DNA of 64,000 nt from Nitrospirota bacterium (GTDB lineage: Bacteria > Nitrospirota > Thermodesulfovibrionia > UBA6902), in NCBI GenBank assembly GCA_016215115.1, contig JACRLN010000024.1:35337-99336 (forward strand). The letters are read 5' to 3'. The notes under the pieces are model-generated. The model was not told the origin of the DNA. It worked only from the letters and a program-made list of their open reading frames with translations, and ran no database searches. This document shows, piece after piece, positions 12,389 to 63,550 of the stretch. Position numbers and translations under genes: made by a program. The stretch's first letter is position 1. Each line of letters opens with the position of its first letter.

Positions 12389-12418
12389 GAGCAAAAATAG
12401 AGTAGAATAAGTACATAA

Positions 12419-12493
12419 GCGCGGAAGAGCAGAAGCGCGGAAGTAAAGAAAATAAAAAGACTTTCGGGCTTTCGGGCTTACGAACTTCCGAGC
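12419..12493. repeat. Family D element: imperfect inverted repeat made of degenerate 7-8-mers (GGAAGAG CAGAAGC GCGGAAG ... ACTTTCG GGCTTTCG ... GAACTTCC)
   Basis: Seen directly between porB and tRNA-Asn. Similar elements at 26421-26510, 37461-37540 and 63481-63550. Confidence 0.7.
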
Positions 12494-12502
12494 TAAAAAT
12501 GT

Positions 12503-15989: not shown

Positions 15990-16675
15990 GGAACACCCTG
16001 AATATTGGTAAAGAACCAAATTTCCAGATAATAGTCATAACATCTGCAATCCTGCATCTGCTTCTGATTACCCTTATAGTCGTTCCGCTAAAAACAAGGA
16101 AAGATGAGTATAAAAGCTATTTTGTGAATCTTGTAGGTCCCATTGAATCTGTCAGAGAAACAAAAGGCAATGAAAATAATCACCTATCCCCTTTAGTAAA
16201 AGAGAATGAACTAAGCAAACCTCTGCCAAAAGCGGATATGTCTTTGGAGCCTTCCGACAAAGTATCAAAAGAAATAAGTAGGATGAGCGCCATAAGTGTA
16301 TTATCAAAACTGAAAAAGAAAAAAGAAGCGGGGACGGCTCATGAGATAGAAATTATAAGGCAAAAAATACAGGCAAGCGTTGCAAAGGGTCCCGGTATTC
16401 CAGGTGCTGTACAATCAATGAAATCCGATTCATATTATTCATTGATTACTCGCAAGATTTGGAGTGAATGGATTTATCCTGAAACCGGTTCTGCAGGACT
16501 TGAAGTGATTATAGCTGTAAAGTTAGACCGGGAGGGAAAGGTTATTTCACACGAAATTGAAAAATCTTCCGGCAACAGCCTCTTTGACCGCTCTGCCTTA
16601 AAAGCAATATCGAAAGCCAGCCCACTGCCGCCGCCTCCCGTTGAAATTGAAATAGGCGTGAGGTTTTATCTGTGA
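15986..16675 (+). CDS. tolA: TolA/TonB-family protein (C-terminal TonB-like domain)
   Basis: N-terminal TM anchor, charged linker, and a C-terminal TonB_C-like domain ending in PPPVEIEIGVRF. Position between tolR and tolB. Confidence 0.6.
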   Translation: MRNTLNIGKEPNFQIIVITSAILHLLLITLIVVPLKTRKDEYKSYFVNLVGPIESVRETKGNENNHLSPLVKENELSKPLPKADMSLEPSDKVSKEISRMSAISVLSKLKKKKEAGTAHEIEIIRQKIQASVAKGPGIPGAVQSMKSDSYYSLITRKIWSEWIYPETGSAGLEVIIAVKLDREGKVISHEIEKSSGNSLFDRSALKAISKASPLPPPPVEIEIGVRFYL

Positions 16676-17949
16676 AAAGTCAGCAGTCAGAAACAAGGAG
16701 TAAGGGGTCAGGAATAAGGGGTTTAATTTCAAATTTTAAATTTCAAATTTTTATTTTTTTACTTATTACTTGTCACTTGTCGCTTGTCACTGTTTCTGAC
16801 GCCAAAGTCTACATCGACATCACATCACCTGCTATTCAGAAGCTCCCAATATCAATAACAGCTAAAGGCGCTCCTGAGGCAAAAGAGATTGAGTCGATCA
16901 TAATAAATGACCTTGATTTCACAGGACTATTTTCTTTTGTCGCTCCGGAGGTCCCCGGGGCTGAGATCATTGTGCGATCTGATGTTGATGTTTCATTAAA
17001 TGAAATAACTGTTCTCTGGTCTATCATTGATTTAGTTGAAAACAAAGAAGCGCTCAAGAAACGAAATACCGCATCCAGAAAAAGTATCCGTGCAATAGCC
17101 CATAACATATCAAACGATATTTATAAATTTATAACTGAAAAGGAAGGGGTTTTCAGGACAAAAATTTCCTATCTTGTATCCGTATCACCGGGGAATAAAG
17201 AACTGTATTTAATGGACTGGGATGGATATAGCCCGATAAAGGTAATACCGGTCGGTTTAACCTCAAGTCATGCATGGTCGAATGACAGCCGTTTTCTCAT
17301 ATATTCATCAGAGAGAAACAGGGCCTGGAAGATATATTTCTTCGATATTAATGATTTCAGAGAAATTGTGCTGTTTTCCTCAAACGGACTAAACCTTGTC
17401 GGGAACTCCTCACCGCGGGATGAGATAGCGTTCTCATCATCCAAAGACGGCAATTCAGAAATATATACTATAAATAAAGACGGAAGCAATCTTCGAAAAC
17501 TTACGCATTCATTCGGAATTGATGTTTCCCCGGTGTTTTCTCCTGATGGATCCTCCATAGCCTTAGTATCAGACAGAGGAGGTTCTCCGCAGATATATAT
17601 AATGGATTCAAATGGAAGCGGGATAAGAAGAATAACGTTTGAAGGTTCATATAACACATCTCCCACATGGTCTCCTGACGGAAAATGGATAGCTTATACC
17701 GGAATGAAGGATGGCAAAAATCAGATTTTCATGGTAAAATCTGACGGAACAGGACTAAGACAACTTACTTTCAACGGTAATAACGAAAGTCCATCATTGT
17801 CTCCCGATGGTCTGTTTTTAGCATTTGATTCTGACAGAGATGGCAAGCGCGGTATTTACATTATGCGACTCAATGGAGATGAACAGAGAAGGATTACACC
17901 AAAGGATACAAAAGCCATGGCGCCAAAATGGTCGCCGTATTTTAATTAA
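16672..17949 (+). CDS. tolB: Tol-Pal system beta-propeller protein TolB
   Basis: TolB N-terminal domain plus a WD40-like propeller with repeated SPDG motifs. The N-terminal extension and signal-peptide region are encoded by a 7-mer tandem repeat (ACTTGTC x3). Confidence 0.8.
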   Translation: MKSQQSETRSKGSGIRGLISNFKFQIFIFLLITCHLSLVTVSDAKVYIDITSPAIQKLPISITAKGAPEAKEIESIIINDLDFTGLFSFVAPEVPGAEIIVRSDVDVSLNEITVLWSIIDLVENKEALKKRNTASRKSIRAIAHNISNDIYKFITEKEGVFRTKISYLVSVSPGNKELYLMDWDGYSPIKVIPVGLTSSHAWSNDSRFLIYSSERNRAWKIYFFDINDFREIVLFSSNGLNLVGNSSPRDEIAFSSSKDGNSEIYTINKDGSNLRKLTHSFGIDVSPVFSPDGSSIALVSDRGGSPQIYIMDSNGSGIRRITFEGSYNTSPTWSPDGKWIAYTGMKDGKNQIFMVKSDGTGLRQLTFNGNNESPSLSPDGLFLAFDSDRDGKRGIYIMRLNGDEQRRITPKDTKAMAPKWSPYFN

Positions 17950-18528: not shown

Positions 18529-18594
18529 CATTCAATTAACCACAGAGAACACTGAGGATCTGAATAGAAGATATGAAGTTGAGAAGTTAGGAAG

Positions 18595-19632
18595 ATGAAA
18601 AGGAAATTATATATGAGATTAAAGAATCTTAAAAACAGCCTTTTCATTCTATCCGCTGTCTTCTGTCTTCTTTGTTCTGTTCTAATATTCACCGGATGCG
18701 CTACAACAGAAGATGTGAATAGAACGCAGTATGATACCAATTTATTAAAAACCGAGGTCCGGGATATAAAGGAAAAATTATCTTCACCGCTTCAAAAGGA
18801 AAAACTTGTCACGCTTGACAAAAAACTGCAGGAAATTCAGAGCACACAGGAATTAACTTCTAAATCAGTTTCAGACCTGCTGATTCAATTCCAGTCTCTC
18901 ACAACAGAATTCCGTGTTCTTACCGGCCGCTTTGAAGAATCACGCTATTATGCTGAAAAAGTTTCGACAGAAATGAAGTCTGAAAAAGAAAAACTTGCCG
19001 CTCAATTGAAGGAGTTGGAACTCTCAATTGATGATTTAAAGAAAAGGGTTGCATTAGCGGAAAAAATAGCCTCTCCTGACTTGAAGGAGGAAGCAAACCC
19101 GGCAGAAGAGAAGAAAACTGTTGAAGAAGCAAAGACGGTCGAGGAAACGAAAAAGGCTCAGGAGTCAGAAAAGAAAGGGCTCGAGAAACCTGAAGATAAA
19201 AAAGAAGCTCAAAAAACTGAACGCAAGAAAGAAATAACAAAAACGGATGTGAAAGATGTCTATCTAACCGGTTATCAGGCCTTCAAGGAAGGCAAAACTG
19301 CGGAGGCAAGAGAAAACTTCATGTCTGTGCTCAAAGATTATCCTGACAATGAATATTCGGACAATGCGCGTTTCTGGATGGCTGAAAGTTACTATAAGGA
19401 AAAGAACTATGAAGACGCCATCCTTGTATATGAAGAACTTTTAAAAAAGAATCCTAAAAGCGACAAGGCGTCAGGCGCATTGTGGAAGCAGGGATTGTCT
19501 TTTTATGCTTTGAAAGACGAAAAGACAGGCAAGATAGTTCTGGAGAAACTGATAGAGCAATTCCCAAATTCTGAACAGGCACTGCTTGCAAAAAAGAAGC
19601 TTGGCAAAACCCCCCCTTCAAAGAAGAAATAA
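18595..19632 (+). CDS. cpoB: Tol-Pal cell-division coordinator CpoB/YbgF (coiled coil + TPR)
   Basis: Lipoprotein-like signal (LIFTGC), a long coiled-coil region and C-terminal TPR repeats, last gene of the tol-pal cluster. The start may be at the downstream Met (MRLKNL). Confidence 0.7.
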   Translation: MKRKLYMRLKNLKNSLFILSAVFCLLCSVLIFTGCATTEDVNRTQYDTNLLKTEVRDIKEKLSSPLQKEKLVTLDKKLQEIQSTQELTSKSVSDLLIQFQSLTTEFRVLTGRFEESRYYAEKVSTEMKSEKEKLAAQLKELELSIDDLKKRVALAEKIASPDLKEEANPAEEKKTVEEAKTVEETKKAQESEKKGLEKPEDKKEAQKTERKKEITKTDVKDVYLTGYQAFKEGKTAEARENFMSVLKDYPDNEYSDNARFWMAESYYKEKNYEDAILVYEELLKKNPKSDKASGALWKQGLSFYALKDEKTGKIVLEKLIEQFPNSEQALLAKKKLGKTPPSKKK

Positions 19633-20900: not shown

Positions 20901-21545
20901 ATGCTCAAACTCCTGATATTTGACCTTGATGGAACACTTACAGACACAGCTCAGGACATAGCGGATGCAATCAACTATGCATTAAAACCCTTCGGGCAAA
21001 AAATCTATTCGGTAGAGGAGACCAAGGCGATGGTGGGCTCCGGTATTTCAAAGCTGCTTGAATCTCTGCTGCCGGTAAAAGATAACAGATCAAAGGAAAC
21101 AGTTACCAATAGATTCCTTGAATATTATTCCGAGCATCTGCTGGATAATACAAAAGTCTATCCGTATGTAAAAGAGACCTTGTCAAAACTGGATAATTAC
21201 AAAAAGGCGGTAGTGTCTAATAAGAGAGAAGCTTTTTCAAAAAGTATACTCGAGGGACATGGAATCTTAGAGTTCTTTGATATAGTCTTCGGCAGCGACA
21301 GTGTGCCGGAAAAGAAGCCTTCTCCGGTCCCGATATTGAAACTTTTGGAAAAATTTCATGTCACTTGTGACGAAGCAGTAATAATAGGAGACAGTAATTA
21401 TGATATTGAAGCAGGTAAGGCTGGGGGGATCAAAACCATTGCTGTTACATATGGCTTTCGCAGCAGGGAAGTCCTGAAAGACGCAGACTTCATAATTGAC
21501 AGTTTTGATGAATTGTTGAATGTTCTTCCTAAAATCAATGAATAG
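20901..21545 (+). CDS. HAD-superfamily hydrolase (phosphoglycolate phosphatase-like)
   Basis: HAD motif I LLIFDLDGTLTDT, motif II-like S/T, and the C-terminal GDSxxD motif (IIGDSNYDIEAG). Confidence 0.7.
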   Translation: MLKLLIFDLDGTLTDTAQDIADAINYALKPFGQKIYSVEETKAMVGSGISKLLESLLPVKDNRSKETVTNRFLEYYSEHLLDNTKVYPYVKETLSKLDNYKKAVVSNKREAFSKSILEGHGILEFFDIVFGSDSVPEKKPSPVPILKLLEKFHVTCDEAVIIGDSNYDIEAGKAGGIKTIAVTYGFRSREVLKDADFIIDSFDELLNVLPKINE

Positions 21546-21562
21546 ATGTAATCATCTTTATA

Positions 21563-21638
21563 AAATCTCCCCTTACCCCTCTTTGCCAAAGAGGGGAATT
21601 AGTTCCCCCTTTGAAAAAGGGGGAGAAAGGGGGATTTT
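21563..21638. repeat. Family A MITE-like repeat, copy 2
   Basis: AAAATCTCCCC TTA CCCCTCTTTGCCAAAGAGGGG ... CCCCCTTTGAAAAAGGGGG AGA AAGGGGGATTTTTT. Flanked by the HAD stop and the methyltransferase start. Confidence 0.8.
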
Positions 21639-22367
21639 TTGAAACAAGAACAAAACGAAACCCTTGACAGCATAAAAGACATAAAGCTGTTTCAGGCAAA
21701 AAACGGTTATCGCTTCAGCGTAGACGCCCTTTTACTTGAAAATTTTATTTCTGCCAAGCGGCTTGAAAAAGGCATTGAACTTGGTACCGGTTCAGGCATC
21801 ATATCAATCTTACTTGCAAAGAGGTTGAAAAGCACAAAAATTATTGCTGTAGAAATTCAAAGCAATCTCGCTGAACGTGCAATAAGAAATGTGAGTCTGA
21901 ATAGTCTTGATGAGAGGATAGAGATACTTCAAAAAGACATCAAGGATTTGAAAAAGATTTATCCGGCCAATAAATTTGACTTTGTATTTTCAAACCCTCC
22001 TTTTAGAAAAACAACGACCGGTCGCTTAAGTATCTACGAAGAACGTGCTGTCGCAAGACACGAGGTTGAAATAACACTCCCTGATTTAATCAGGACAGCA
22101 TCTTATCTGATTAAACATTCAGGGAAGTTTTTCCTGATCTATCATCCCTTCAGACTTGCAGAATTAATAAGCCTCTTGCAAAAAGCAAAACTTGAACCGA
22201 AAAGGATGAGATTTGTACATTCAAAAATGGGCGAGGAGGCTAAAATGGTTTTGATTGAAGCAGTAAAAGGTTCAGGCACATGGCTTAAAATTGCCCATCC
22301 CTTATTTATCTATGAAAAAGGCAGTGAATATACTTCAGAGTTAAAAAAGATTCTTTCGGTACCCTGA
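21639..22367 (+). CDS. N6-adenine-specific SAM-dependent methyltransferase (TrmN6/YfiC-like small methyltransferase domain)
   Basis: SAM-binding GxGxG (ELGTGSGIISILLA) and the catalytic motif FSNPPF. TTG start abuts the repeat, so the start is uncertain. Confidence 0.6.
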   Translation: MKQEQNETLDSIKDIKLFQAKNGYRFSVDALLLENFISAKRLEKGIELGTGSGIISILLAKRLKSTKIIAVEIQSNLAERAIRNVSLNSLDERIEILQKDIKDLKKIYPANKFDFVFSNPPFRKTTTGRLSIYEERAVARHEVEITLPDLIRTASYLIKHSGKFFLIYHPFRLAELISLLQKAKLEPKRMRFVHSKMGEEAKMVLIEAVKGSGTWLKIAHPLFIYEKGSEYTSELKKILSVP

Positions 22368-25688: not shown

Positions 25689-25806
25689 TCAAACGCGTGT
25701 CATGCCCGAAGCCTGCCCTCGAATGTCGTAATCGGGGGTCTTTAATCGGGCATCCAGAACTTATTAAAAAGACTGGATTCCCGCTCAACAGACTGCGGGA
25801 ATGACG
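25689..25806. repeat. Family B repeat, extended copy with three hairpins
   Basis: GTCATGCCCGAAGCCTGCCCTCGAATGTCGTAATCGGGGGTC ... GGGCATCCAG ... CTGGATTCCCGCTCAACAGACTGCGGGAATGAC. Confidence 0.75.
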
Positions 25807-26273: not shown

Positions 26274-26420
26274 TTTTTTTGTTTTCTCACCTCAAAGTTT
26301 ACAAAAACTGTCTCTAATTGTTATTATTTAAATTCAGATTGCATGCTTTAACCGTTCAGTAGCTTCTGTAACCACCAATATGTTTTAAGGAATGGTATAG
26401 ACGTTTTTTTATCTGGAAAG

Positions 26421-26510
26421 ACGAGTGAGAAGTAGAAAGTGGGAAGTAAAGAAAGAAAAATTTAATATGCCTTTTTTACTTCTTACCTCTTACTTCCTAC
26501 TTCTTACTTA
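26421..26510. repeat. Family D element: (GAGTGAG AAGTAGA AAGTGGG AAGTAAA GAAAGAA) ... inverted (TTTTTACTTCTTACCTCTTACTTCCTACTTCTTACTTA)
   Basis: Seen directly. A long imperfect hairpin built from heptamer units, sitting between tRNA-Arg and the glutamate synthase genes. Confidence 0.7.
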
Positions 26511-26522
26511 AGGAAAGAAAAC

Positions 26523-27632
26523 ATGTGCAGGCTTGCTGCTATAACATCATTTGAATATTTTTCACCGATAGAAAATATCATGGCCCTTGAAACCATGAAG
26601 GAAGGGCATGACGGTTCCGGCATGGGGCTTATCCTGAAAAGGCTCGGCGGTGAATTTGAGGACCTGAAAGACTATCCAATCCTGTCCGGCATTTGCTCTA
26701 AAGACGGGATGAAGACCCTTGATGATTACATGAACAAGCTCGGGTTCAAACTGAAGTACACCTGGACCCCCAAGATCAGAACTGTCAGAGGGATCACAGG
26801 CCGGGACCATTATTTTGCGCGGGTCTATGATTATCCCGACGTCTACAAAGACAGGGCTTGGGGCGACAAGGAAGACCTGCTCCTGAAGACTAGACTGGCC
26901 CTCAGGAAATTCGGGGAAGGCGATGAGTCAATCATTGTATTTTCTTTCTACCCGGATATACTTACGCTGAAAGAGGTCGGCGACCCTCTGCAGCTTGCGG
27001 AGTTTTTCGGCCTTGATAAATCCCCGCTCAAAGCAAAGATTATCTTTGCCCAGGGAAGACAGAATACCAATTATGCCATCAATATGTATGCATGTCATCC
27101 TTTTTTTATTCAGGGTTACGGTTCGATGACAAACGGAGAGAATACTGCGTTTGTGCCTATAAGAGAATTTTTAATGAGCAGGAATTTCCCCGGCTATATC
27201 GGCTATAACAGCGACAGCGAGGTGTTCTGTCATATTCTTCACTACACCTGCAAGCAGTTAGCTTATCCGCTTACGTACTATAAAGACGTAATCACACCGC
27301 TAAAACAGTCGGAAATCGACAAAAGGACTGACAGCGAGGTTGCAAGATTGTTGAAGATATCGCTAAGGCCGCTTTGCATAGACGGCCCCAATTGTGTTAT
27401 TGCATTTACTCCCGACGGGACCTGCCTTATGGTTCAGGATGCCAAGAAACTCAGGCCGGGCATTGTCGGCGGCATGAAGGGCAAATACGGATTCATGTCC
27501 GAGGAGTGCGGGCTTGACAGCGTAATACCTGAGAGAGATAAATCTCAGGACGTATTCCCCATGAAATACGACATGGTTATTGTCAAGCCGGACGCACAGG
27601 AGGTGATGGTATGGAACCAGCTTCACGGTTAG
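26523..27632 (+). CDS. glutamate synthase, glutamine amidotransferase subunit (archaeal-type GltB domain 1, class II Ntn amidotransferase)
   Basis: Begins Met-Cys (MCRLAAI), the nucleophile Cys of class II amidotransferases. 369 aa, followed by the FMN and GXGXG subunits. Confidence 0.75.
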   Translation: MCRLAAITSFEYFSPIENIMALETMKEGHDGSGMGLILKRLGGEFEDLKDYPILSGICSKDGMKTLDDYMNKLGFKLKYTWTPKIRTVRGITGRDHYFARVYDYPDVYKDRAWGDKEDLLLKTRLALRKFGEGDESIIVFSFYPDILTLKEVGDPLQLAEFFGLDKSPLKAKIIFAQGRQNTNYAINMYACHPFFIQGYGSMTNGENTAFVPIREFLMSRNFPGYIGYNSDSEVFCHILHYTCKQLAYPLTYYKDVITPLKQSEIDKRTDSEVARLLKISLRPLCIDGPNCVIAFTPDGTCLMVQDAKKLRPGIVGGMKGKYGFMSEECGLDSVIPERDKSQDVFPMKYDMVIVKPDAQEVMVWNQLHG

Positions 27633-29272: not shown

Positions 29273-29316
29273 AGATAAAACAAAGAACAAAGAACACAGA
29301 GCACAGACTAAAAACA

Positions 29317-29400
29317 TGTCATTCCCGCAGTCTGTTGAGCGGGAATCCAGAGTCTTTTTAGAGGGAACTGGATTCCGGCTTAAGGACTGCCGGAATGACA
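29317..29400. repeat. Family B double-hairpin repeat copy
   Basis: GTCATTCCCGCAGTCTGTTGAGCGGGAATCCAG ... CTGGATTCCGGCTTAAGGACTGCCGGAATGACA. About 90% identical to the reverse complement of the copy at 56866-56957. Confidence 0.8.
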
Positions 29401-44705: not shown

Positions 44706-44726
44706 GAAAAAGTTTGTAAGATCGTA

Positions 44727-44818
44727 GTAGGGGCGATCCGGTGGATCGCCCCTACGAGAGGACACAAAAAGGGCACGTCGCGACGTGCCCCTACAGGGCG
44801 TATGCCATACGCCCCTAC
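44727..44818. repeat. Family C palindromic (REP-like) repeats, three consecutive palindromes
   Basis: GTAGGGGCGATCCGGTGGATCGCCCCTAC, then the perfect palindrome GGCACGTCGCGACGTGCC, then GGGCGTATGCCATACGCCC. Followed at 44840-44880 by an 8-mer array (CTTTTGCA CTTCTGCT CTTTTGCA CTTTCGCG). Confidence 0.8.
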
Positions 44819-44938
44819 TTTATTGCTTACGCCCTTCCCCGCTTTTGCACTTCTGCTCTTTTGCACTTTCGCGCTCTTGACATTGTTCGGAAATAGCGTA
44901 TGATTTAATATGTAAAGCAAAAAAACAGGAGGTGTGCG

Positions 44939-51114: not shown

Positions 51115-51450
51115 TTATACGCAACCAGTCGGCTTTGGCAGCCCGGCATACCTACATGCCTGTTTTGCAGGACCTGCCGGATACAGTTCATAAAGATATT
51201 TTGTATTCCCCTTTTCCGGACCCATAACTTTTCCAATCTCTTTGGTAAGTATCTTAATCATTGGAGCTATCTGATATTTCGCAAAATAATCTCTGAGGAA
51301 TTTGATAACTTCCCAATGTGAATCAGTCAATTCAAGACCGTCATCCTGTGACATTTTCTTGGCAATGTTTTCATTCCATTCCTGCCAGTCCTGTAAATAT
51401 CCGTCCTCATCTACCTCATAGTTTTTCCCATCAACTTCTATAGTTGCCAT
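51115..51450 (-). CDS. dsrC: DsrC (TusE/DsrC family sulfur relay protein)
   Basis: 111 aa ending ...QACRYAGLPKPTGCV, the diagnostic DsrC C-terminal arm with two Cys 10 residues apart and penultimate Cys-Val. Confidence 0.9.
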   Translation of the reverse strand: MATIEVDGKNYEVDEDGYLQDWQEWNENIAKKMSQDDGLELTDSHWEVIKFLRDYFAKYQIAPMIKILTKEIGKVMGPEKGNTKYLYELYPAGPAKQACRYAGLPKPTGCV

Positions 51451-51924: not shown

Positions 51925-53546
51925 GGTTTTATCGAGGTATCCTTAAACTTCCTTGCACATCTCACCAACCCATCCGCCCATTCAGGCGCTCCAATTGCAT
52001 GAAGATGTGTATATGCAGCCAATACATTTTTGTAGCACATTCCGTCTTTGCCATCTACGATACCCTTCCCGCGTCTGACGTTGAATGCAAAATATATTTG
52101 CTCTGAAAATCCCCCTACATCCCCCATTGTAGGGGCGACCCGGCGAGTCGCCCCTACGGTTGAGAGGGGATCTATTTCAAGAACTCGCGAATAATGAAAC
52201 TCATGTCCCTTAAGAACGGTCTTATCGGGAAAGTATTGATTAGCTTTTTCAACCTCAACAATTGTATAACCATGCGCCTGCGGTTTTTTCTCAAGCCCAA
52301 AAGTTATCGGAAGGGCGCCAACCATCGGATATGTCTTGTTGCCTAAAACAAGACTTTTACCAAGATACATCAGCCCGCCGCATTCGGCATATACAGGAAG
52401 CCCGTCCTGAATTGCATCAAACAATGAATTCCTGAAACTTATATTATCAGCCAATGCTATCGCATGTGTTTCAGGGAAACCTCCGCCCATGTAAAGCGCG
52501 TCTATTTCGGGAAGTTTTGTTTCTCTCAGAGGGCTCACTTCGATCAGACTGGCTCCCCTTTTCTCAAGCTCTTCAAAATTCTCCTGGTAGTAAAATTGAA
52601 AAGCAGAATCTCGGATGATACCGATTTTGACTACGGAGCTGGAAGTTGGAGGTTGGGGGTTAGCTTGACCCTTGACACTAATCCCTAATCCCTTATCCCT
52701 TATCCCTGTCTCCAGAGGAGACGCTTCATTGGCAATTTTCAATACTTGATCGATATCAATATATTTCTCTCCTATGTCAGCAACTAATGCCAAAGATTCT
52801 TCAACGTCCTGCCGTTCCTGGAAAGGGGTTAAGCCCATATGCCTTTCAGGAAAAGGGTCTTTCTTTAATCTTGGGATGGCGCCCACCACAGGCAATTTAC
52901 ACCTTTTTTCTATTGCTTTTTTTATCAGGGTCTCCTGCCTGTTTGTCGCAATCTGGTTAAGAACGATACCACCTATTGCAACATCTGCATCCATCTGCTG
53001 GCATCCCAGGACCATTGCGGCAATTGTATTGGTTGCCTTTGTGCAGTCAACAATAATTATTACCGGAGTTTTTAATAATTTGGCCAGTTCAGCGGTGCTA
53101 TAAGTGCCCTCATCATCAACTCCGTCAAACAAGCCCCTATTACCTTCGATGATGGCAATCTGAGTGGAGAGTGGAGAGTTTGGAGTTAGGAGTTCGGATT
53201 CTTTGATTTTGGATTTCAGATTTCGAATTTCGGATCTCAATTCTGTCTTACTTTTGCACTTCTGCACTTTTGCACTTCTGTACTTATCATATGTATGCGA
53301 GATAAAAGACCCAAGCGCCTGCTCCGGCTTCATCATGAAGAGGTCCAGATTGTAACATGGAGTCCCGGCCGTCTTTGCAAGCCAGCCCGCGTCAATATAA
53401 TCAGGCCCTTTCTTAAAAGGTGTAACAAGCAAGCCTCTTTTTCTGAATAAAGAAACAAGACATAAAGAAAGGATAGTCTTTCCGCTCCCACCCCTGAGAC
53501 CGGAAACAACTATCCTTGGTATTGAGAAATTCTGTGATTGGGTCAT
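51921..53546 (-). CDS. dsrN: DsrN, cobyrinic acid a,c-diamide synthase (CbiA/CobB) homolog, putative sirohaem amidase
   Basis: P-loop (VVSGLRGGSGKT), a CobB/CbiA ATPase domain and a C-terminal class-I amidotransferase-like domain (GHEFHYS ... YTHLHAIG). Carries three in-frame repeat-derived segments (52107-52172, 52640-52720, 53160-53290). Confidence 0.8.
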   Translation of the reverse strand: MTQSQNFSIPRIVVSGLRGGSGKTILSLCLVSLFRKRGLLVTPFKKGPDYIDAGWLAKTAGTPCYNLDLFMMKPEQALGSFISHTYDKYRSAKVQKCKSKTELRSEIRNLKSKIKESELLTPNSPLSTQIAIIEGNRGLFDGVDDEGTYSTAELAKLLKTPVIIIVDCTKATNTIAAMVLGCQQMDADVAIGGIVLNQIATNRQETLIKKAIEKRCKLPVVGAIPRLKKDPFPERHMGLTPFQERQDVEESLALVADIGEKYIDIDQVLKIANEASPLETGIRDKGLGISVKGQANPQPPTSSSVVKIGIIRDSAFQFYYQENFEELEKRGASLIEVSPLRETKLPEIDALYMGGGFPETHAIALADNISFRNSLFDAIQDGLPVYAECGGLMYLGKSLVLGNKTYPMVGALPITFGLEKKPQAHGYTIVEVEKANQYFPDKTVLKGHEFHYSRVLEIDPLSTVGATRRVAPTMGDVGGFSEQIYFAFNVRRGKGIVDGKDGMCYKNVLAAYTHLHAIGAPEWADGLVRCARKFKDTSIKP

Positions 53547-53571: not shown

Positions 53572-53670
53572 AAAATTTCCCCCCTTTAAAAAAGGGGGGC
53601 AAGGGGGGATTTTCAAGAAACATATTTTTCTCAAAATCTCCCCTAACCCCTCTTTGTCAAAGAGGGGCAT
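53572..53670. repeat. Family A MITE-like repeat, copy 3 (two tandem sub-units)
   Basis: AAAATTTCCCCCCTTTAAAAAAGGGGGGCAAGGGGGGATTTT ... AAAATCTCCCCTAACCCCTCTTTGTCAAAGAGGGG. Between dsrD and dsrN. Confidence 0.8.
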
Positions 53671-54012: not shown

Positions 54013-55089
54013 TTATCTTGAATACTTGAATGCTGCCGATGTCCTGAATGTATCTCTTGCGAAAGTGAAATCGTCAATATGCTGGAATGTGAACTCGATT
54101 CCGGTCAGATTGAAGAAGTCTTCCCATCCTATCCTCTCAATCCATTCGCCAACTCTTTCATGCTTCCTTGCATTTTTTGCATATACCTCAAGGATATTCT
54201 TTATTGCAGCAACAACCTTGGGCCATCTCGGCGGTTCATTGTAAAAGAACGGGATTGCCAGTTTCGAGAACTTCGGATTTGTTCTGAGACTGCCGATCTT
54301 TCCGCCCACCACTATCGCCACGCCATCTTCTTCCGGCTTGTGAATGTCAATCGGCGGACATACGGTGAAGCAGTTTCCGCAGTACATGCATTTATCCTCA
54401 TTGATTGTTACTGATTTGTCTTTCGGATTGGGTCTGATTGCCGATGTCGGACACGATGCGACTGTTGTCGGAATCTCACATACTTTAGGCACAAGTTCAT
54501 GATTGATTGTCGGCACTTTTCTGTGCACGGCAACTACAGCTATATCAGAACAGTGAACAGCGCCGCACATGTTAACGCAGCATGCAACTGCAAGCCTTAC
54601 TTTATTGGGCAGTTCTTTTGTTGTGAAATATTCATAGAGATCATCCATTATCGCCTTTACCAATCCTGAGGCATCGGTACAAGCGCTGTGGCAGTGTACC
54701 CATCCCTGTGTATGGACTACGTTACTGACTCTCGGTCCGATACCGCCAACTGAATATTTTTTTGCCTTCAGTTCTGCTACAAGAGGATCTACCTTGCTCT
54801 GGTCGGACACGAGAAATTCCACGTTGTTTCTTGTTGTGAAACGGAGGTATCCGTCACAGTATTTCTCTGACATATCGCAGATTTCACGGATAGTCTCGGT
54901 GCTTAAAATCCTTGGTGATGCAACCCTTACCGTATAAAGCTTATCGCCGCTTTCTGCAACATGCACCATTGTGCCGCCGCTCAAAACCTCATGATATTTC
55001 CATTTGCCGTAGTTTTTCTTTATTACAGGCGGTATAAACTGATCATATTTAGGTGGTCCAATATCTGTTTGTCTTTTTGGTAATGCCAT
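54013..55089 (-). CDS. dsrB: dissimilatory sulfite reductase beta subunit
   Basis: 358 aa. Sirohaem/[4Fe-4S] Cys motifs ([21 protein letters not shown]) and a ferredoxin-like insert ([10 protein letters not shown] ... [12 protein letters not shown]). Confidence 0.9.
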
Positions 55090-55124
55090 GTATTTATTCC
55101 TCCTATTTTTATTTTATTAATTAT

Positions 55125-56309
55125 TTATTTTTTGAAATCGCTTTCTGACCAGAAGAAGAACGGGTCTTTTCTCGGCTCTTTAACCTGCTGTGGCTGAGGC
55201 GGCACACCAATGTGCTCAAGGAAAGGCCTCAAGCCTTTTATTTCAAGAACCTCGCCGATTCTCTCTCTTGGTTTTGCGGTATCATCCCACCATTCAATCA
55301 TGCTGCGGATAAGGGTCTTCAATTCTGTGTATGGCGCCTCCACTTTTATAAATGGAACGATTACCCAGGAAAGCAATGAACCGACAACAATCGGAGCCTT
55401 ACTGCCAACAAGAAGGGTTGCGCCTTTTTCCTTACCTGGTCTTAGCGCCTTTGTCATCTTTGCTATACAATGCATGCACCTGTTGCATTGAACGTCATTA
55501 ATCTTGAGTGTCTTTCCATCGTAAGACATACATTCGGTAGGACACATGTCAATTATCTCTGCATTGATATTCATGCCTGAGTCTGCATACTTTTTCACTT
55601 CTGCCTGATCAATCTGGATATTGCCTTTCCAGGTACCGATGATGGACAGGTCTGCACGGGCAATAGCTGCAACGCAGTCAACTGCGCAGCCGGCTGTCTT
55701 GATTTTAAATTTATAAGGGAATGCCGGCCTGTGAAGTTCATCCTGGAATTCCTGTGTGAGTGCGTATGTAATATCAAGTGTGTCTATACAGGACCATTCG
55801 CAGCGGCCCGGGCCAACGCAGCAACTTGGGGTCCTCATTGCAGAACCTGAACCTCCGAGATCCCATCCGCGTGAAGAATACTCAGCAAAAATGGCTTCGA
55901 GATTTTCAGTCGTGGTCCCGAGAAGAACCAGGTCACCGGTGGAGCCATGCATATTTGTAAGTCCGCTTCCGTATTTATCCCAGATGTCGCAGATCATCTT
56001 TAATGCTTTTGCAGTATAGAAGAAACCGCTTGTCTGGTTAATTCTTACAGTATGAAACTGTGCAATACCGGGGAATTCTTCAGGTAAAGACGAATATCTG
56101 CCGATTACGCCGCCCCCGTAACCGAGAACGCCGACTATTCCGCCGTGTTTCCAGTATCCGCGTTTTGTCTTATACGATTTTTCAAGCTGGCCTAATTCAT
56201 CATCTGCCATTGAGCTTTTTTTCGCAGCCTTTTTTATTTCTGTAACGAAACTCGGCCACGGTCCTTTTTCAAGCTCGTCCAACATTGGTGTTTTATACTT
56301 CCCGCTCAT
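55125..56309 (-). CDS. dsrA: dissimilatory sulfite reductase alpha subunit
   Basis: 394 aa. Sulfite-reductase Cys motifs (PSCCVGPGRCEWSC, TAGCAVDCVAA) and a ferredoxin-like domain (CPTECM ... CNRCMHCIAKM). Confidence 0.9.
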   Translation of the reverse strand: MSGKYKTPMLDELEKGPWPSFVTEIKKAAKKSSMADDELGQLEKSYKTKRGYWKHGGIVGVLGYGGGVIGRYSSLPEEFPGIAQFHTVRINQTSGFFYTAKALKMICDIWDKYGSGLTNMHGSTGDLVLLGTTTENLEAIFAEYSSRGWDLGGSGSAMRTPSCCVGPGRCEWSCIDTLDITYALTQEFQDELHRPAFPYKFKIKTAGCAVDCVAAIARADLSIIGTWKGNIQIDQAEVKKYADSGMNINAEIIDMCPTECMSYDGKTLKINDVQCNRCMHCIAKMTKALRPGKEKGATLLVGSKAPIVVGSLLSWVIVPFIKVEAPYTELKTLIRSMIEWWDDTAKPRERIGEVLEIKGLRPFLEHIGVPPQPQQVKEPRKDPFFFWSESDFKK

Positions 56310-57419: not shown

Positions 57420-57512
57420 TTATTTGTCATTCCCGAGGTCTTTATCGGGAATCCAGTATTATTTAGAACAAAAGACCCTCGAATGTCGTAATCGGAGGCG
57501 GGTATGACGGCT
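57420..57512. repeat. Family B double-hairpin repeat copy
   Basis: TGTCATTCCCGAGGTCTTTATCGGGAATCCAG ... CCTCGAATGTCGTAATCGGAGGCGGGTATGAC. Confidence 0.75.
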
Positions 57513-58488: not shown

Positions 58489-60675
58489 ATGGAGCGGGAA
58501 AGCAGGATAAAGGACGAAATTATAGGCATCCTTGCCATTCTTATCGGTCTCGTTGTCATCATAAGCATTATAAGCCACAACCGCTGGGATCAATCACTTT
58601 TTACCTATAACACTTATGAATTAAAAAATCTTCTGGGCCGTTTCGGGGCCAACCTATCAGAAATCCTTCTGCAGGCTGTCGGTCTTTCCTCCTATATAAT
58701 TCCAATAATCTTTCTGATTTTTGGAATAAAGAAGGTTTTTGGCAAAGCAACAAACCAGAAACCTGTTTTATTTATTGTTACAGTCGTAATCCTGATTATT
58801 TCAACATCCTCGCTCTTTACTCTTTTCCTCGGAGGTGATTCCGGCGGCGCTGCAGGAGTATTAATAACAGAGCTGACCAATAAAACTGTTTCATCAATCG
58901 GTTCTCTGCTGCTTTTTGCAACCTTAACGCTTGTTTCTCTGATGTACATTATTCAATTCTCTGTAGCAGATCTGGTAAGAAAGACAAAAAGCAAAATAAT
59001 TTTTGGCACCCAGGCAATCTCTGCCGTAGCGGCTAAAAAGAAAGAGAAAGAACAGCCACAAATAAAAGAAAATAGCGCCACTTCTGAAATACCGGTTCAG
59101 CCGGAGATCGCAGAGCCGGTAGAAATGCCGGAAATACCAAGTATTCAGGAGCCCCTGCCTCTTGCACCCGAGGCAAGAATGAAACCAAAAGAAAAACCTT
59201 TTATGAAACCCTCGGAAAAGGTCGAAGGAGATTATAAACTCCCCGGCGTTGATCTTTTAAAAGACCCTTCACCGTCAAAGTCCAAACCTACAAAAGAAGA
59301 GCTGTTACAACAGTCTGAATTGTTAGAGAAAAAACTCCAGGACTATTCAATTGAAGGAAAAGTCACTTATGTGTCCCCCGGTCCGGTTGTAACAATGTTT
59401 GAATTCGAACCTGCGCCGGGCATTAAGATCAATAAAATCATGTCTCTTTCAGATGACCTTGCAATGGCGATGAAGGCAACGAGCATCCGCATTTCACCAA
59501 TACACGGCAGGTCCACGCTCGGCATCGAAGTGCCAAATCAGGAACGAGAAGATGTTTGTTTGAAAGAGCTTATTGTCTCTGATATATTCAGGAAAAGCCC
59601 TTCAAAATTGACCATCGCTCTCGGGAAAGACATATTCGGAACGCCTGTCATGGCGGACCTGAGCAAGATGCCTCATCTTCTTATTGCCGGAGCAACCGGC
59701 TCCGGTAAAAGCGTTGGAATGAACAGCATCGTGTTAAGCCTTTTATACAGGGCGACGCCAAAAGAAGTTAAGATGCTTATGATTGACCCCAAGATGCTTG
59801 AGCTCTCCGCTTATGCTGAAATTCCGCATCTTCTCATGCCTGTCATTACCTTGCCAAAAGAAGCTTCAAATGCGCTGAAGATGCTGGTATTTGAGATGGA
59901 GCGGCGTTACAGGCTTCTCGCAGAATCAGGGGCCAGGAACATCGAGACATACAATAAGAAATTTGAAATTTCAAATTTCAAATTTCAAATTAAAGAATCA
60001 GATTTTGAATCTCATTCTGCAACTGAACGTGAACCTCTCCCCTATATCGTTATCTTCATCGACGAACTTGCCGACCTCATGTTTGCGTCAGGACACGAAG
60101 TGGAAGACTCTATTGCGCGTCTGGCGCAGATGGCGCGGGCCGCCGGAATACACCTGATCCTGGCAACGCAAAGACCGTCTGTTGATGTAATCACGGGAAT
60201 AATAAAAGCTAACTTTCCATCAAGGATATCTTTTCAGGTCTCATCGAAACTGGACTCCCGGATAATCCTCGATACATACGGTGCAGATCAATTGTTAGGC
60301 AAAGGCGACATGCTCTTTGTCAGTCCGGGCAAAAAAATCAAAAGAATTCACGGCGCATATGTGAGTGAAGAAGAAATGAAACATGTTGTGGATTTTATTA
60401 AGACACAGGGCGGGCCTGATTATACATTGTTCGAGGATATTACCATTGAATCACGGGAAGGGGAGTTATCTGAGGACAAAGATGAACTCTATCTGCAGGC
60501 AAAAGATATTGTGCTGTCCACCGGTCAGGCGTCGATTTCATATATACAGCGCAGGATGAAAATAGGATACAACAGGGCAGCAAGGATTATGGAAATGCTC
60601 GAAGAAGAAGGCGTTGTCGGCCCTCCGGGTGAAGCTGGGAAACCAAGGGAGATATTATGGAAGAGAAAACAATGA
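58489..60675 (+). CDS. ftsK: DNA translocase FtsK/SpoIIIE
   Basis: Four N-terminal TM helices, a Pro/Glu linker, the motor domain (Walker A AGATGSGKSVGMNS, Walker B IVIFIDELADLM) and a C-terminal winged-helix gamma domain. Contains a heptamer-repeat-derived segment at about 59950-60010. Confidence 0.85.
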   Translation: MERESRIKDEIIGILAILIGLVVIISIISHNRWDQSLFTYNTYELKNLLGRFGANLSEILLQAVGLSSYIIPIIFLIFGIKKVFGKATNQKPVLFIVTVVILIISTSSLFTLFLGGDSGGAAGVLITELTNKTVSSIGSLLLFATLTLVSLMYIIQFSVADLVRKTKSKIIFGTQAISAVAAKKKEKEQPQIKENSATSEIPVQPEIAEPVEMPEIPSIQEPLPLAPEARMKPKEKPFMKPSEKVEGDYKLPGVDLLKDPSPSKSKPTKEELLQQSELLEKKLQDYSIEGKVTYVSPGPVVTMFEFEPAPGIKINKIMSLSDDLAMAMKATSIRISPIHGRSTLGIEVPNQEREDVCLKELIVSDIFRKSPSKLTIALGKDIFGTPVMADLSKMPHLLIAGATGSGKSVGMNSIVLSLLYRATPKEVKMLMIDPKMLELSAYAEIPHLLMPVITLPKEASNALKMLVFEMERRYRLLAESGARNIETYNKKFEISNFKFQIKESDFESHSATEREPLPYIVIFIDELADLMFASGHEVEDSIARLAQMARAAGIHLILATQRPSVDVITGIIKANFPSRISFQVSSKLDSRIILDTYGADQLLGKGDMLFVSPGKKIKRIHGAYVSEEEMKHVVDFIKTQGGPDYTLFEDITIESREGELSEDKDELYLQAKDIVLSTGQASISYIQRRMKIGYNRAARIMEMLEEEGVVGPPGEAGKPREILWKRKQ

Positions 60676-61409
60676 AAAAACAGTCAGCGGTAGGCAGCCA
60701 AAAAAATAAAGCAGAAGGTAAGAAGATAAGAAGATGGGAGGATAAGAAATCTCCACTTCTCAACTTCTTAACTTCTCAACTTCTCATACTCTGTTTACTT
60801 GTCACTTGTCACTTGTCACTTGTCACTATTGTTCATGCTGCCACCGTCGACGAAATTGTCAACGACATCCAGAAGAAGTTAGCTGAGATTCATGACATGA
60901 AAGGCACATTCTCTCAAACAAGCTATCTCAAAGATCTCGAGAAAACAGAAACGTATGCAGGCACATTTTACATAAAAAAACCTTCCGGTATAATGTGGGA
61001 ATATATACCCCCCCGCGATGAAAAAATTATAATTAACGGGACGGAAACGTGGGCTTACAAAAAGTCACAAAAACAGGCAATAAAAACCAGATTCAGCAAA
61101 GAAGCGTATAGCCAGGTCCCTATAGCATTGTTAAACGGTCTCGAAAATCTCGGTGCTGATTTTGACATAACGATCATGGAACAGGACACGCTGCATTTGA
61201 AGCCAAAACATCAGATGGGATTCATTCAGGAGATAATCCTCAAGACAAGCTCCAGGAATTTCCCTGTAAAAATGCTTAAAGTATTGGACGTGTACGGCAA
61301 TAAAATTACCATAGAACTCACAGATATAAAAACTAACAATGGACTTGATGATTCACTTTTTACTTTTACAGCGCCTCCGGGAGTTGAGGTGTTTGATATG
61401 ACCCAGTGA
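60657..61409 (+). CDS. lolA: outer-membrane lipoprotein carrier protein LolA (LolA-like fold)
   Basis: Signal peptide, then an open beta-barrel-type sequence (GTFSQTSYLKDLEKTETYAGTFYIKKPSGIMWEY). The start is uncertain (60657 or 60672). The N-terminal extension and signal h-region are encoded by an (ACTTGTC)x4 array. Confidence 0.65.
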   Translation: MEEKTMKKQSAVGSQKNKAEGKKIRRWEDKKSPLLNFLTSQLLILCLLVTCHLSLVTIVHAATVDEIVNDIQKKLAEIHDMKGTFSQTSYLKDLEKTETYAGTFYIKKPSGIMWEYIPPRDEKIIINGTETWAYKKSQKQAIKTRFSKEAYSQVPIALLNGLENLGADFDITIMEQDTLHLKPKHQMGFIQEIILKTSSRNFPVKMLKVLDVYGNKITIELTDIKTNNGLDDSLFTFTAPPGVEVFDMTQ

Positions 61410-63428: not shown

Positions 63429-63480
63429 TCTCATCATATTGAATATATAATATAAATACCACAGAGACACGGAGTATAAA

Positions 63481-63550
63481 GTTCGGAAGCACGGAAGTTC
63501 AGAAGTTGGGAAGCCTTTTACTTCCGAGCTTCCAGACTTCCGCACTTTTC
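63481..63550. repeat. Family D element (CGGAAGCA CGGAAGTT CAGAAGTT GGGAAGCC TTTT ACTTCCGA GCTTCCAG ACTTCCGC ACTTTTC)
   Basis: Seen directly. An inverted array of GGAAG/CTTCC-containing 8-mers. The ORF 63204-63545 is an artefact. Confidence 0.7.

Follow-up and report, generated by a model that had tools for sequence, protein, structure and literature searches.

Predicted Sec signal peptides of TolB and LolA encoded by heptamer simple-repeat arrays in Thermodesulfovibrionia

Background

In the 64,000-nucleotide stretch of DNA analysed here, which comes from a Nitrospirota bacterium of the Thermodesulfovibrionia (contig JACRLN010000024.1, positions 35,337 to 99,336, forward strand; G+C content 42%; hereafter the window), two unrelated genes for exported proteins, tolB and lolA, share at their 5' ends tandem copies of the heptanucleotide ACTTGTC and, with them, the peptide TCHLSLVT. 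This raises the question of whether simple-repeat DNA can serve as the coding sequence of a bacterial export signal and, if so, how it came to do so. Based on the anatomy of the two leaders, their comparison with those of relatives and the distribution of similar arrays, we propose as the probable answer that slippage-prone heptamer (and some octamer) simple repeats are tolerated in this lineage and have been co-opted as Sec signal peptides. A first-pass annotation of the window had ascribed the shared peptide to a mobile or expanding repeat recruited into, or overwriting, the signal-peptide coding sequences. The evidence below supports that reading as essentially right but too narrow, in that the phenomenon is clade-wide, extends to other permissive coding sites and to intergenic hairpins, and involves one array of period 8.

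Repeat anatomy of the tolB and lolA leaders

The tolB gene (16672..17949; PD40 repeats, identified as TolB by a PDB match) lies within a tolQ-tolR-tolA-tolB-pal-cpoB cluster, and lolA (60657..61409; Pfam LolA) lies directly 3' of ftsK. The 5' ends of the two genes are composed of the following elements:

16672-16674, forward strand: GTG start codon of tolB, sharing bases with the TGA stop (16673-16675) that ends the upstream TonB_C/TolA-like gene (GTGA)
16678-16722, forward strand: degenerate polar heptamer array (AGTCAGC AGTCAGA AACAAGG AGTAAGG GGTCAGG AATAAGG), encoding the long n-region SQQSETRSKGSGIRG
16725-16750, forward strand: AATTTCA x3.7, encoding ISNFKFQI at the n-/h-region boundary of TolB
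16756-16791, forward strand: ACTTGTC array, 3.4 good copies from 16768 and degenerate from 16756, encoding the TolB hydrophobic core LLITCHLSLVT
16792-16803, forward strand: TolB c-region VSDA, with a predicted signal peptidase I site between 16803 and 16804 and the mature protein starting KVYIDITSP
60672-60674, forward strand: probable ATG start codon of lolA, overlapping the ftsK TGA stop at 60673-60675 (ATGA)
60708-60792, forward strand: in-frame octamer hairpin (RNA fold -26.8 kcal/mol, z = -4.2)
60713-60748, forward strand: purine arm of this hairpin, AGAAGATA x4.5, encoding AEGKKIRRWEDKK
60750-60786, forward strand: its pyrimidine arm, TCTCAACT x4.6, period 8, encoding PLLNFLTSQLLI
60797-60827, forward strand: ACTTGTC x4.4, perfect, encoding LVTCHLSLVT, with which the LolA hydrophobic core ends

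The signal-peptide coding segment of tolB (16672-16803; 132 nt or 44 codons) consists entirely of arrays up to the short c-region, and nucleotide identity at lag 7 across it is 0.62 as against 0.24-0.38 at neighbouring lags. Tandem Repeats Finder (TRF) placed 3.4 copies of ACTTGTC at 16768-16791, with one A>G mismatch and degenerate copies extending back to 16756, and 4.4 perfect copies at 60797-60827. A 21-mer search allowing up to 3 mismatches recovered (ACTTGTC)n at these two loci only in the window, with a chance expectation of 0.00. The repeat that the first-pass annotation had reported in both N-terminal coding regions is confirmed, and the peptides it quoted, LLITCHLSLVTVSDA and LLVTCHLSLVTIVHA, were reproduced. 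It had also described 7-mer arrays upstream of both: this holds for the AATTTCA x3.7 array of tolB at 16725-16750 (0.02 expected by chance), whereas the lolA array given as CTTCTCAACTTCT-type has period 8 and is the TCTCAACT x4.6 hairpin arm. A separate public assembly (Logan SRR12113396), which may share reads with the window's own assembly, has the tolB region without a single base difference. Across the window as a whole, head-to-tail 7-nt units are the dominant period, with 8 arrays observed against 0.4 expected, accompanied by 3 arrays of period 8 against 0.15; the two together are over-represented about 20-fold. Periods 4, 6 and 9-12 are as frequent as expected, and period 5 is slightly raised (8 against 3.8). 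The arrays are a real and statistically solid feature.

As 7 is coprime to 3, a stop-free heptamer array encodes one cyclic 7-residue peptide whichever frame is read, and only its total length matters for the frame downstream. T/C-rich units yield hydrophobic peptides and purine-rich units polar or charged ones. The TCHLSLVT common to TolB and LolA comes from their use of one favoured DNA unit and not from protein homology, as the first-pass annotation had argued; the sequences next to the ACTTGTC arrays are unrelated between the two genes. Repeat-derived peptides can in this way imitate homology between unrelated proteins.

Both leaders have the organization of a Sec-type signal peptide, with a positively charged n-region (5 K/R and 1 E among TolB residues 1-25; K/R-rich residues 6-33 of LolA) and an h-region followed by small residues at -3 and -1 before a conserved mature N-terminus. 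The h-/c-region of TolB reads IFIFLLITCHLSLVTV-SDA before KVYIDITSP, its best 12-residue Kyte-Doolittle window averaging 2.4, and that of LolA LLILCLLVTCHLSLVTI-VHA before ATVDE, with a best average of 2.7. The LolA c-region IVHA ends at 60839 and the mature protein would run from 60840; the predicted cleavage falls between residues 61 and 62, as compared with residue 68-69, to which residue 4 of mature E. coli LolA aligns in the PDB alignment. In TolB the mature start, KVYIDITSP behind an alanine, is kept in the large majority of 120 orthologues and abuts the array. Given that no second hydrophobic segment lies downstream, the arrays must be the signal peptides of TolB and LolA, which, going by the predicted sites, would be exported and cleaved immediately behind them.

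This conclusion depends on where translation begins. A GTGA or ATGA overlap is present at the tolB start in 7 Nitrospirota loci, and its retention in relatives argues for translational coupling and for 16672 as the true tolB start. In lolA a second in-frame ATG at 60657, 15 nt upstream of 60672, is the start of the open reading frame (ORF) annotated by NCBI. For TolB the NCBI record MBI5098858.1 (P0361) has 390 aa (MSLVTVSDAK...) and starts at a TTG inside the ACTTGTC array, while other gene callers give 425 aa. One might thus hold that the repeats are untranslated and that TolB begins at this TTG or at some other downstream codon, given the choice made by the NCBI pipeline and the fact that gene callers often over-extend ORFs through upstream repeats. 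Such a start, however, leaves 9 residues before the mature start and no hydrophobic core, though TolB is periplasmic. Moreover, the coupled GTGA start and the open frame are kept in all relatives and outgroups, and hydrophobic arrays abut the cleavage site across the clade. We consider untranslated repeats extremely improbable, and the NCBI start inside the array is probably wrong. Nor is the repeat bypassed by starts further down, a possibility that the first-pass annotation had raised against itself: mature TolB and LolA begin right after the arrays, leaving no space for another signal peptide. The leaders are an annotation hazard more widely, start calls for TolB, LolA and CpoB orthologues differing by 30-60 residues between sources.

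Turnover of the arrays among relatives

We then compared the 5' ends of orthologous genes, as the first-pass annotation had advised, and found that the arrays turn over between relatives. Five tolB alleles were included, those of the window and of the relatives L012, L013, L002 and L003, whose proteins are 93, 92, 81 and 76% identical to that of the window. All five have the same GTGA start and the same mature start and are in frame, with leaders of 44, 51, 34, 34 and 39 codons respectively, while their arrays differ in unit and copy number. Nucleotide identity at lag 7 is 0.62-0.70 in these leaders against 0.22-0.47 at other lags. L012 has three more polar units than the window, a 21-nt indel matched by 7 additional aa in the protein P0362; L013 and L002 are without the polar array and have five AATTTCA units, a unit whose copy number ranges from 3.5 to 5 in the tolB relatives. 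L012, L013 and L002 each have ACTTGTC four times; in L003 CTACTTT, CTTTTTT and CTGCCTT arrays take its place. The window and L012 are about 91% identical over 21 kb, and several of the larger indels between them fall in repeat elements. The 21-nt, three-unit difference bears out the "expanding" half of the earlier "mobile or expanding repeat", whereas the mobile half is unproven.

In lolA, the leader site of the relative L015 (84%) holds AATTTCA x4.5 followed by TTGTCAC x3.5, and that of L014 (91% over the C-terminal half) an AGTCAGC-type array and ACTTGTC x2, out of frame in the leader. This closest lolA relative (L014 2290-2600; JGI 3300043312) is also frameshifted in the mature part, with about 4 nt missing near CAGAAAACTCAGG; it may be a pseudogene, a poor assembly or a genuine OFF allele, assembly error or pseudogene being more likely.

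Beyond these relatives the arrays disappear. The overlapping start is still there in L009 (47% identity) and in four Geobacteraceae, the latter having a short signal peptide behind a GTGA at the end of tolA, and the leaders have about 21-26 residues and no arrays; L004, also at 47% identity, has an intermediate leader. As these outgroups lack arrays behind the same start, the arrays are derived. The short array-free signal peptides of the 47%-identity relatives and Geobacteraceae also dispose of conservation in distant orthologues, which the first-pass annotation had named as evidence that would tell against it.

A repeat unit that is not a multiple of three, situated in a leader-peptide coding region and varying in copy number among relatives, is the layout of the opa genes of Neisseria (PMC3960869). 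Slippage by 7 nt might accordingly switch tolB and lolA on and off or retune export, making them contingency loci, and the out-of-frame lolA of L014 could be taken as one such allele. Length differences are, however, multiples of three, with five of five tolB and two of three lolA alleles in frame. The frameshift in the mature part of L014 makes assembly error or a pseudogene more likely there, the arrays have only 3-5 units, and like arrays occur in the cytoplasmic proteins FtsK and CbiA. Furthermore, tolB and lolA are housekeeping genes in operons with coupled starts and not surface antigens; cpoB likewise lies in a conserved operon. Phase variation of tolB and lolA has no support, and we regard the contingency-locus interpretation as very improbable. 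The truncated proteins P0011, P0012, P0124, P0142 and P0361 were entertained as OFF alleles and rejected, the two that were checked, P0124 (compared with P0122, on a contig of equal length) and P0361 (compared with the window), being alternative gene calls on the same DNA.

Clade-wide distribution of heptamer-encoded leaders

The wider distribution of array-derived leaders was assessed with an encodability test, which asks whether a 7-residue window is exactly encoded by some heptamer x3; 11,256 of 1.28e9 peptides qualify. An encodable window lies within the first 66 residues in 58 of 120 TolB orthologues, against none of 42,121 later windows, and at the N-terminus of 56 of 120 LolA orthologues, against none of 19,145 later windows. 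This test superseded a search for lag-7 periodicity in the peptides, which is specific but insensitive, three DNA units making one peptide unit, and which found it in 17 TolB and 6 LolA proteins against 0-2 at other lags. Most of the hydrophobic array peptides stop 2-6 residues short of the mature start, with the polar ones upstream, and the units are diverse (ACTTTTC, AAATTTC, ACTTGTC, AGGGGTC, ATTGTCT and others). Heptamer-encoded TolB and LolA leaders are thus a clade-wide pattern; we found no description of repeat-encoded signal peptides in Nitrospirota in the searchable literature, the coverage of which is incomplete.

The notion that ACTTGTC itself is a lineage-specific signature was rejected. 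(ACTTGTC)3 is present in more than 120 metagenome contigs of 32-68% G+C, mostly outside long ORFs, in a scan made with ACTTGTC alone and no comparison heptamer. Two further clear leader-peptide cases are among these metagenome loci (L034, L059). In 6-8 loci (L048, L063, L065, L115 and others) the reverse complement (GACAAGT)n lies upstream of (ACTTGTC)n, and in none downstream.

Building on the anatomy, over-representation, frame conservation in five tolB alleles, turnover, clade-wide distribution and derived state described above, we propose the following scenario. Heptamer repeats, which are abundant in this lineage, would persist where they are tolerated. Translation of tolB and lolA would start at the codon coupled to the upstream stop (GTGA, ATGA) and proceed through polar purine-rich arrays that supply a long positively charged n-region. 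T/C-rich stop-free arrays, with a 7-residue peptide rich in Leu, Val, Ser, Thr and Cys, would then supply the h-region and a non-repeat c-region (VSDA, IVHA) the signal peptidase site. In tolB, lolA and cpoB the arrays in the translated 5' end would jointly form a Sec signal peptide. The arrays may have drifted into the leaders, expanded in them and replaced them, with selection keeping the frame and the cleavage site; because no more is required of a signal peptide than charge, hydrophobicity and a small-x-small site, gain, loss or replacement of units would be tolerated if the total is a multiple of three. We infer slippage as the generator of the arrays and no added regulatory role for them. 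Heptamers are the dominant long simple repeat in many bacteria, for which polymerase slippage has been proposed, at least as these studies are summarised in later work (Mrazek 2007 as summarised in PMC4679880; PMC4692102).

Arrays at other coding sites and in intergenic hairpins

Similar arrays are found elsewhere in the window, both in genes and between them:

12409-12495, forward strand: 8-mer array hairpin AAGCGCGG/AAGAGCAG ... CTTTCGGG, intergenic, just upstream of tRNA-Asn (z = -4.9)
18566-18680, forward strand: 5' end of the cpoB/ybgF-like lipoprotein gene, with a purine-rich 8/16-mer array at 18566-18602 across the start region
18656-18680, forward strand: CTGTCTT x3.6, encoding AVFCLLCSV in the h-region of the cpoB-like lipoprotein signal peptide, lipobox FTGC
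26425-26512, forward strand: GAAGT-type purine array paired with TTACTTC x4.9 in an intergenic hairpin whose end lies 10 nt upstream of the ATG of the ORF at 26523 (-30 kcal/mol, z = -5.5)
52640-52707, reverse strand: GGGATTA/GGGATAA array plus CCAACCT-type array, in frame in the inter-domain linker of cobyrinate a,c-diamide synthase (CbiA)
53162-53285, reverse strand: composite of ACTTCTGC/ACTTTTGC, GATTTCGAATTTCA and GAGTTAG/GAGTGGA arrays (units as on the forward strand), in frame in CbiA just upstream of the IAIIEGNRG motif
59959-59991, forward strand: in-frame AAATTTC x4.7 array of ftsK, whose peptide FEISNFKFQIK sits in a variable motor-domain loop
63455-63550, reverse strand: 8-mer array hairpin of GCGGAAGT ... 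ACTTCCGA type (-35.3 kcal/mol, z = -5.1)

At the cpoB 5' end (18566..18680; fold z = -3.6) the right arm is kept in L012 and the left arm is not. A 36-nt in-frame indel relative to L012 (GAGGAAGCAAACCCGGCAGAAGAGAAGAAAACTGTT) lies further on in cpoB, at 19087-19122, where the sequence is of low complexity and rich in Glu, Lys and Pro. Arrays are absent from the leader of Pal and from two other lipoprotein or Tat leaders of the window.

The ftsK array has the same unit as the AATTTCA array of tolB. At this site L014 carries AAAATTC units in the same place and at the same length, and L015 a degenerate copy. The length of the loop array is thus kept while all its units differ between the window (AAATTTC) and L014 (AAAATTC), which suggests that it may have been homogenised internally rather than by independent point changes. 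In CbiA, heptamer-encodable windows are present in 47 of 120 orthologues, nearly all in the inter-domain linker, which holds 51 of the 58 encodable runs, and none at the N-terminus. The site upstream of IAIIEGNRG is a hot spot, empty in many orthologues and occupied in others by at least four unrelated types of repeat element, always in frame (P0241-P0285). The presence of in-frame arrays in cytoplasmic FtsK and CbiA argues for tolerance rather than an export-specific device.

The intergenic composites consist of a purine-rich 7-8-mer array followed by a complementary pyrimidine-rich one. At least five hairpin composites fold with z of -3.6 to -5.5, a dispersed-hairpin arrangement of the kind expected of an element like the transposable elements of the miniature inverted-repeat type (MITEs), repetitive extragenic palindromes (REPs) or Rickettsia palindromic elements (RPEs). 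The purine arm comes first in all seven hairpin composites of the window (12409-12495, 18566-18680, 26430-26509, 52640-52707, 53162-53285, 60713-60786 and 63455-63545). A 16-mer unit, ACTTTTGCACTTCTGC, or its complement, GCAGAAGTGCAAAAGT-like, is present in arrays at two or three unlinked loci (44834-44879, 53250-53285, 12409-12450), one of them inside CbiA.

Origin and role of the arrays

These hairpins invite the idea of a mobile cassette, in which small hairpin elements of MITE or REP type would transpose, or be copied from locus to locus, and where inserted in frame would deliver a "charged then hydrophobic" module. Identical units do occur at unlinked loci (ACTTGTC in tolB and lolA, AATTTCA in tolB and ftsK, ACTTTTGC/ACTTCTGC at 44834 and 53250), and the order polar array, AATTTCA, ACTTGTC recurs in tolB and lolA of different genomes. 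The octamer hairpin of lolA encodes an RRWEDKK-type peptide that is also found in LolA P0152 and in CbiA P0251 and P0262, so that this hairpin recurs in both LolA and CbiA across several genomes. Folding of the intergenic composites is strong (z -4.2 to -5.5), and the one at 26425-26512 is wholly missing from the 91%-identical L012. A reverse-complement array precedes (ACTTGTC)n in the 6-8 metagenome loci mentioned above, and Rickettsia palindromic elements provide a precedent (PMC10969869). On the other hand, terminal inverted repeats, a target-site duplication and a clean empty site are lacking, the L012 site that corresponds to 26410-26508 of the window holding other sequence, and the elements share period and purine/pyrimidine architecture but not sequence. 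In the leaders, complementarity between polar and hydrophobic arrays does not exceed that of random pairs (3.17 against 3.28 mismatches, 12 proteins), the tolB composite folds weakly (z -0.9 to -1.9), and L013 and L002 are without the left arm. No transposase candidate turned up, none having been specifically searched for. Mobility of the arrays is unproven and such a cassette seems unlikely. As a general rule for the heptamer arrays of tolB and lolA the hairpin model was rejected in view of the weak tolB fold and the non-complementary arms; its validity is confined to the octamer module of lolA and to the intergenic composites.

We also considered a bolder form of this idea, in which 7-8-nt arrays with purine and pyrimidine arms would be self-propagating, portable proto-signal peptides or membrane anchors that have repeatedly rebuilt the export signals of conserved envelope proteins in Thermodesulfovibrionia. 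With the purine arm first on whichever strand they lie, such elements would always be translated as charged and then hydrophobic. If true, this would be a general way in which repeat DNA gives rise to targeting sequences de novo; we regard it as quite unlikely.

The same hairpins could instead act in RNA, as mRNA structures or as sites for an RNA-binding protein of the S1, CsrA or Csp type controlling translation or stability, their translation being incidental. The position of many arrays, at a start codon or a short distance upstream of one, would suit this, as would four hairpins with folds far stronger than those of shuffled sequences and purine arms rich in GGA- and Shine-Dalgarno-like motifs. 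Of five folds, four are stronger on the strand that carries the neighbouring genes, a sample too small to use. A similar proposal has been made for the TAACTGA repeats upstream of start codons in Beggiatoaceae (PMC4679880). Yet the ACTTGTC arrays of tolB and lolA fold weakly, on the mRNA strand the CbiA insertions show no folding, units and copy numbers differ between close relatives, and hairpins come and go. At the gathering threshold Rfam matches in the window are confined to two tRNAs, with no other structured RNA family, and terminator-like sites are absent from 16300-17000 and 60400-61000. A role in RNA is decidedly unlikely as the main explanation; it is compatible with co-option as signal peptides and not exclusive of it.

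Several observations weigh against the proposal that tolerated simple repeats were co-opted as signal peptides. At 24 and about 28 residues the n-regions are unusually long, as is the LolA h-region at about 26 residues, and the conserved coupled start and the open frame are the only pointers to translation of the polar arrays, which would nonetheless supply those n-regions. For slippage at a high rate, 3-5 units make a short array, and the L014 allele of lolA, frameshifted also in its mature part, is out of frame. Slippage with selection does not account for the recurrence of one unit at unlinked loci: with about 207 of 2,344 heptamer classes free of stops and equally hydrophobic, such sharing would arise by chance about 1 time in 200. 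It further leaves unaccounted for both the presence of (ACTTGTC)n in the more than 120 metagenome contigs spanning 32-68% GC and the constant purine-arm-first order of the hairpin composites. The purine-first layout and the metagenome spread point to a repeat-generating process not yet understood.

Comparison with known repeat systems

The arrays combine known kinds of feature, namely heptamer simple repeats, leader-peptide coding repeats and in-frame repeat elements, and imply no new molecular machine. In Neisseria opa, going by the accounts cited, CTCTT pentamer "coding repeats" in the leader-peptide region cause phase variation (PMC3960869; Stern et al. 1986 as cited in PMC4692102). The present arrays are likewise repeats of non-multiple-of-three unit and variable copy number in the 5' coding region that encode a leader peptide. 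However, the repeats of opa form long arrays that turn surface antigens on and off at about 1e-3 per generation, in contrast to the 3-5 units found here in housekeeping genes, where good-quality alleles are all in frame and several arrays are concatenated.

With a dominant period of 7 beyond chance and copy-number change between related genomes, the arrays have the properties of heptanucleotide long simple sequence repeats (LSSRs). Such 7-nt LSSRs, known from cyanobacteria, Beggiatoaceae (TAACTGA; PMC4679880) and Xanthomonas and Nostoc (GGGAATC / GGGGA(T/C)T; PMC4692102), are similarly over-represented, mostly intergenic and often beside start codons, with stop-free orientations occasionally tolerated at the protein periphery. 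Those reports, however, mainly concern non-coding repeats with one dominant unit, unlike the many units and purine/pyrimidine hairpins seen here and the systematic formation of signal peptides of conserved envelope proteins across a class. The in-frame arrays of CbiA, FtsK and the lolA octamer hairpin are comparable to RPEs (PMC10969869), small palindromic repeats inserted in frame at permissive sites of housekeeping genes; RPEs form families of about 150 bp with conserved sequence and peptide, whereas the present elements are tandem 7-8-mers with a shared architecture and copy-number change. Finally, in the leucine repeats of eukaryotic signal peptides (PMC3124433) repeat-encoded hydrophobic tracts are again concentrated in signal peptides relative to mature proteins, but those are single-amino-acid tracts of trinucleotide origin, as opposed to the 7-nt units and mixed 7-residue peptides of these bacteria.

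Export signals of housekeeping envelope proteins lying in simple-repeat DNA are, as a phenomenon, of moderate to fairly high evolutionary interest. This would be a natural, clade-wide case in which a functional segment is written, rewritten and replaced by microsatellite-type DNA while the mature protein is conserved, and a clean case of coding sequence arising from simple repeats. The export signals of Tol-Pal and Lol components would also form a comparative library for how little sequence information export needs.

Other repeat families and neighbouring genes

A different palindromic element, of GTCATTCCCGC...GCGGGAATCC type, has copies at 29310-29350, 57425-57470 and 25765-25806, at least one of which is missing in L012; its IPAFAGMT-like translation lies within the predicted leaders of the LolA orthologues P0125 and P0149. 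A CCCCCTTTGAAAAAGGGGG-type palindromic family is represented at 21539-21640, a 101-nt block missing from L012, and at about 53590-53600 on the reverse strand, and three tandem hairpins of GTAGGGGCG...CGCCCCTAC type lie between convergent genes at 44725-44830. PLWKRG- and PPFxKGG-like translations of the latter two families are found in frame in CbiA, TolB and LolA orthologues. Two adjacent NIR_SIR-domain proteins (54013-56309, reverse strand) resemble the dissimilatory sulfite reductase DsrAB, and a small ORF downstream of them (51115-51450, reverse strand) is DsrC-like by eye; the organism may have a sulfur-based energy metabolism.

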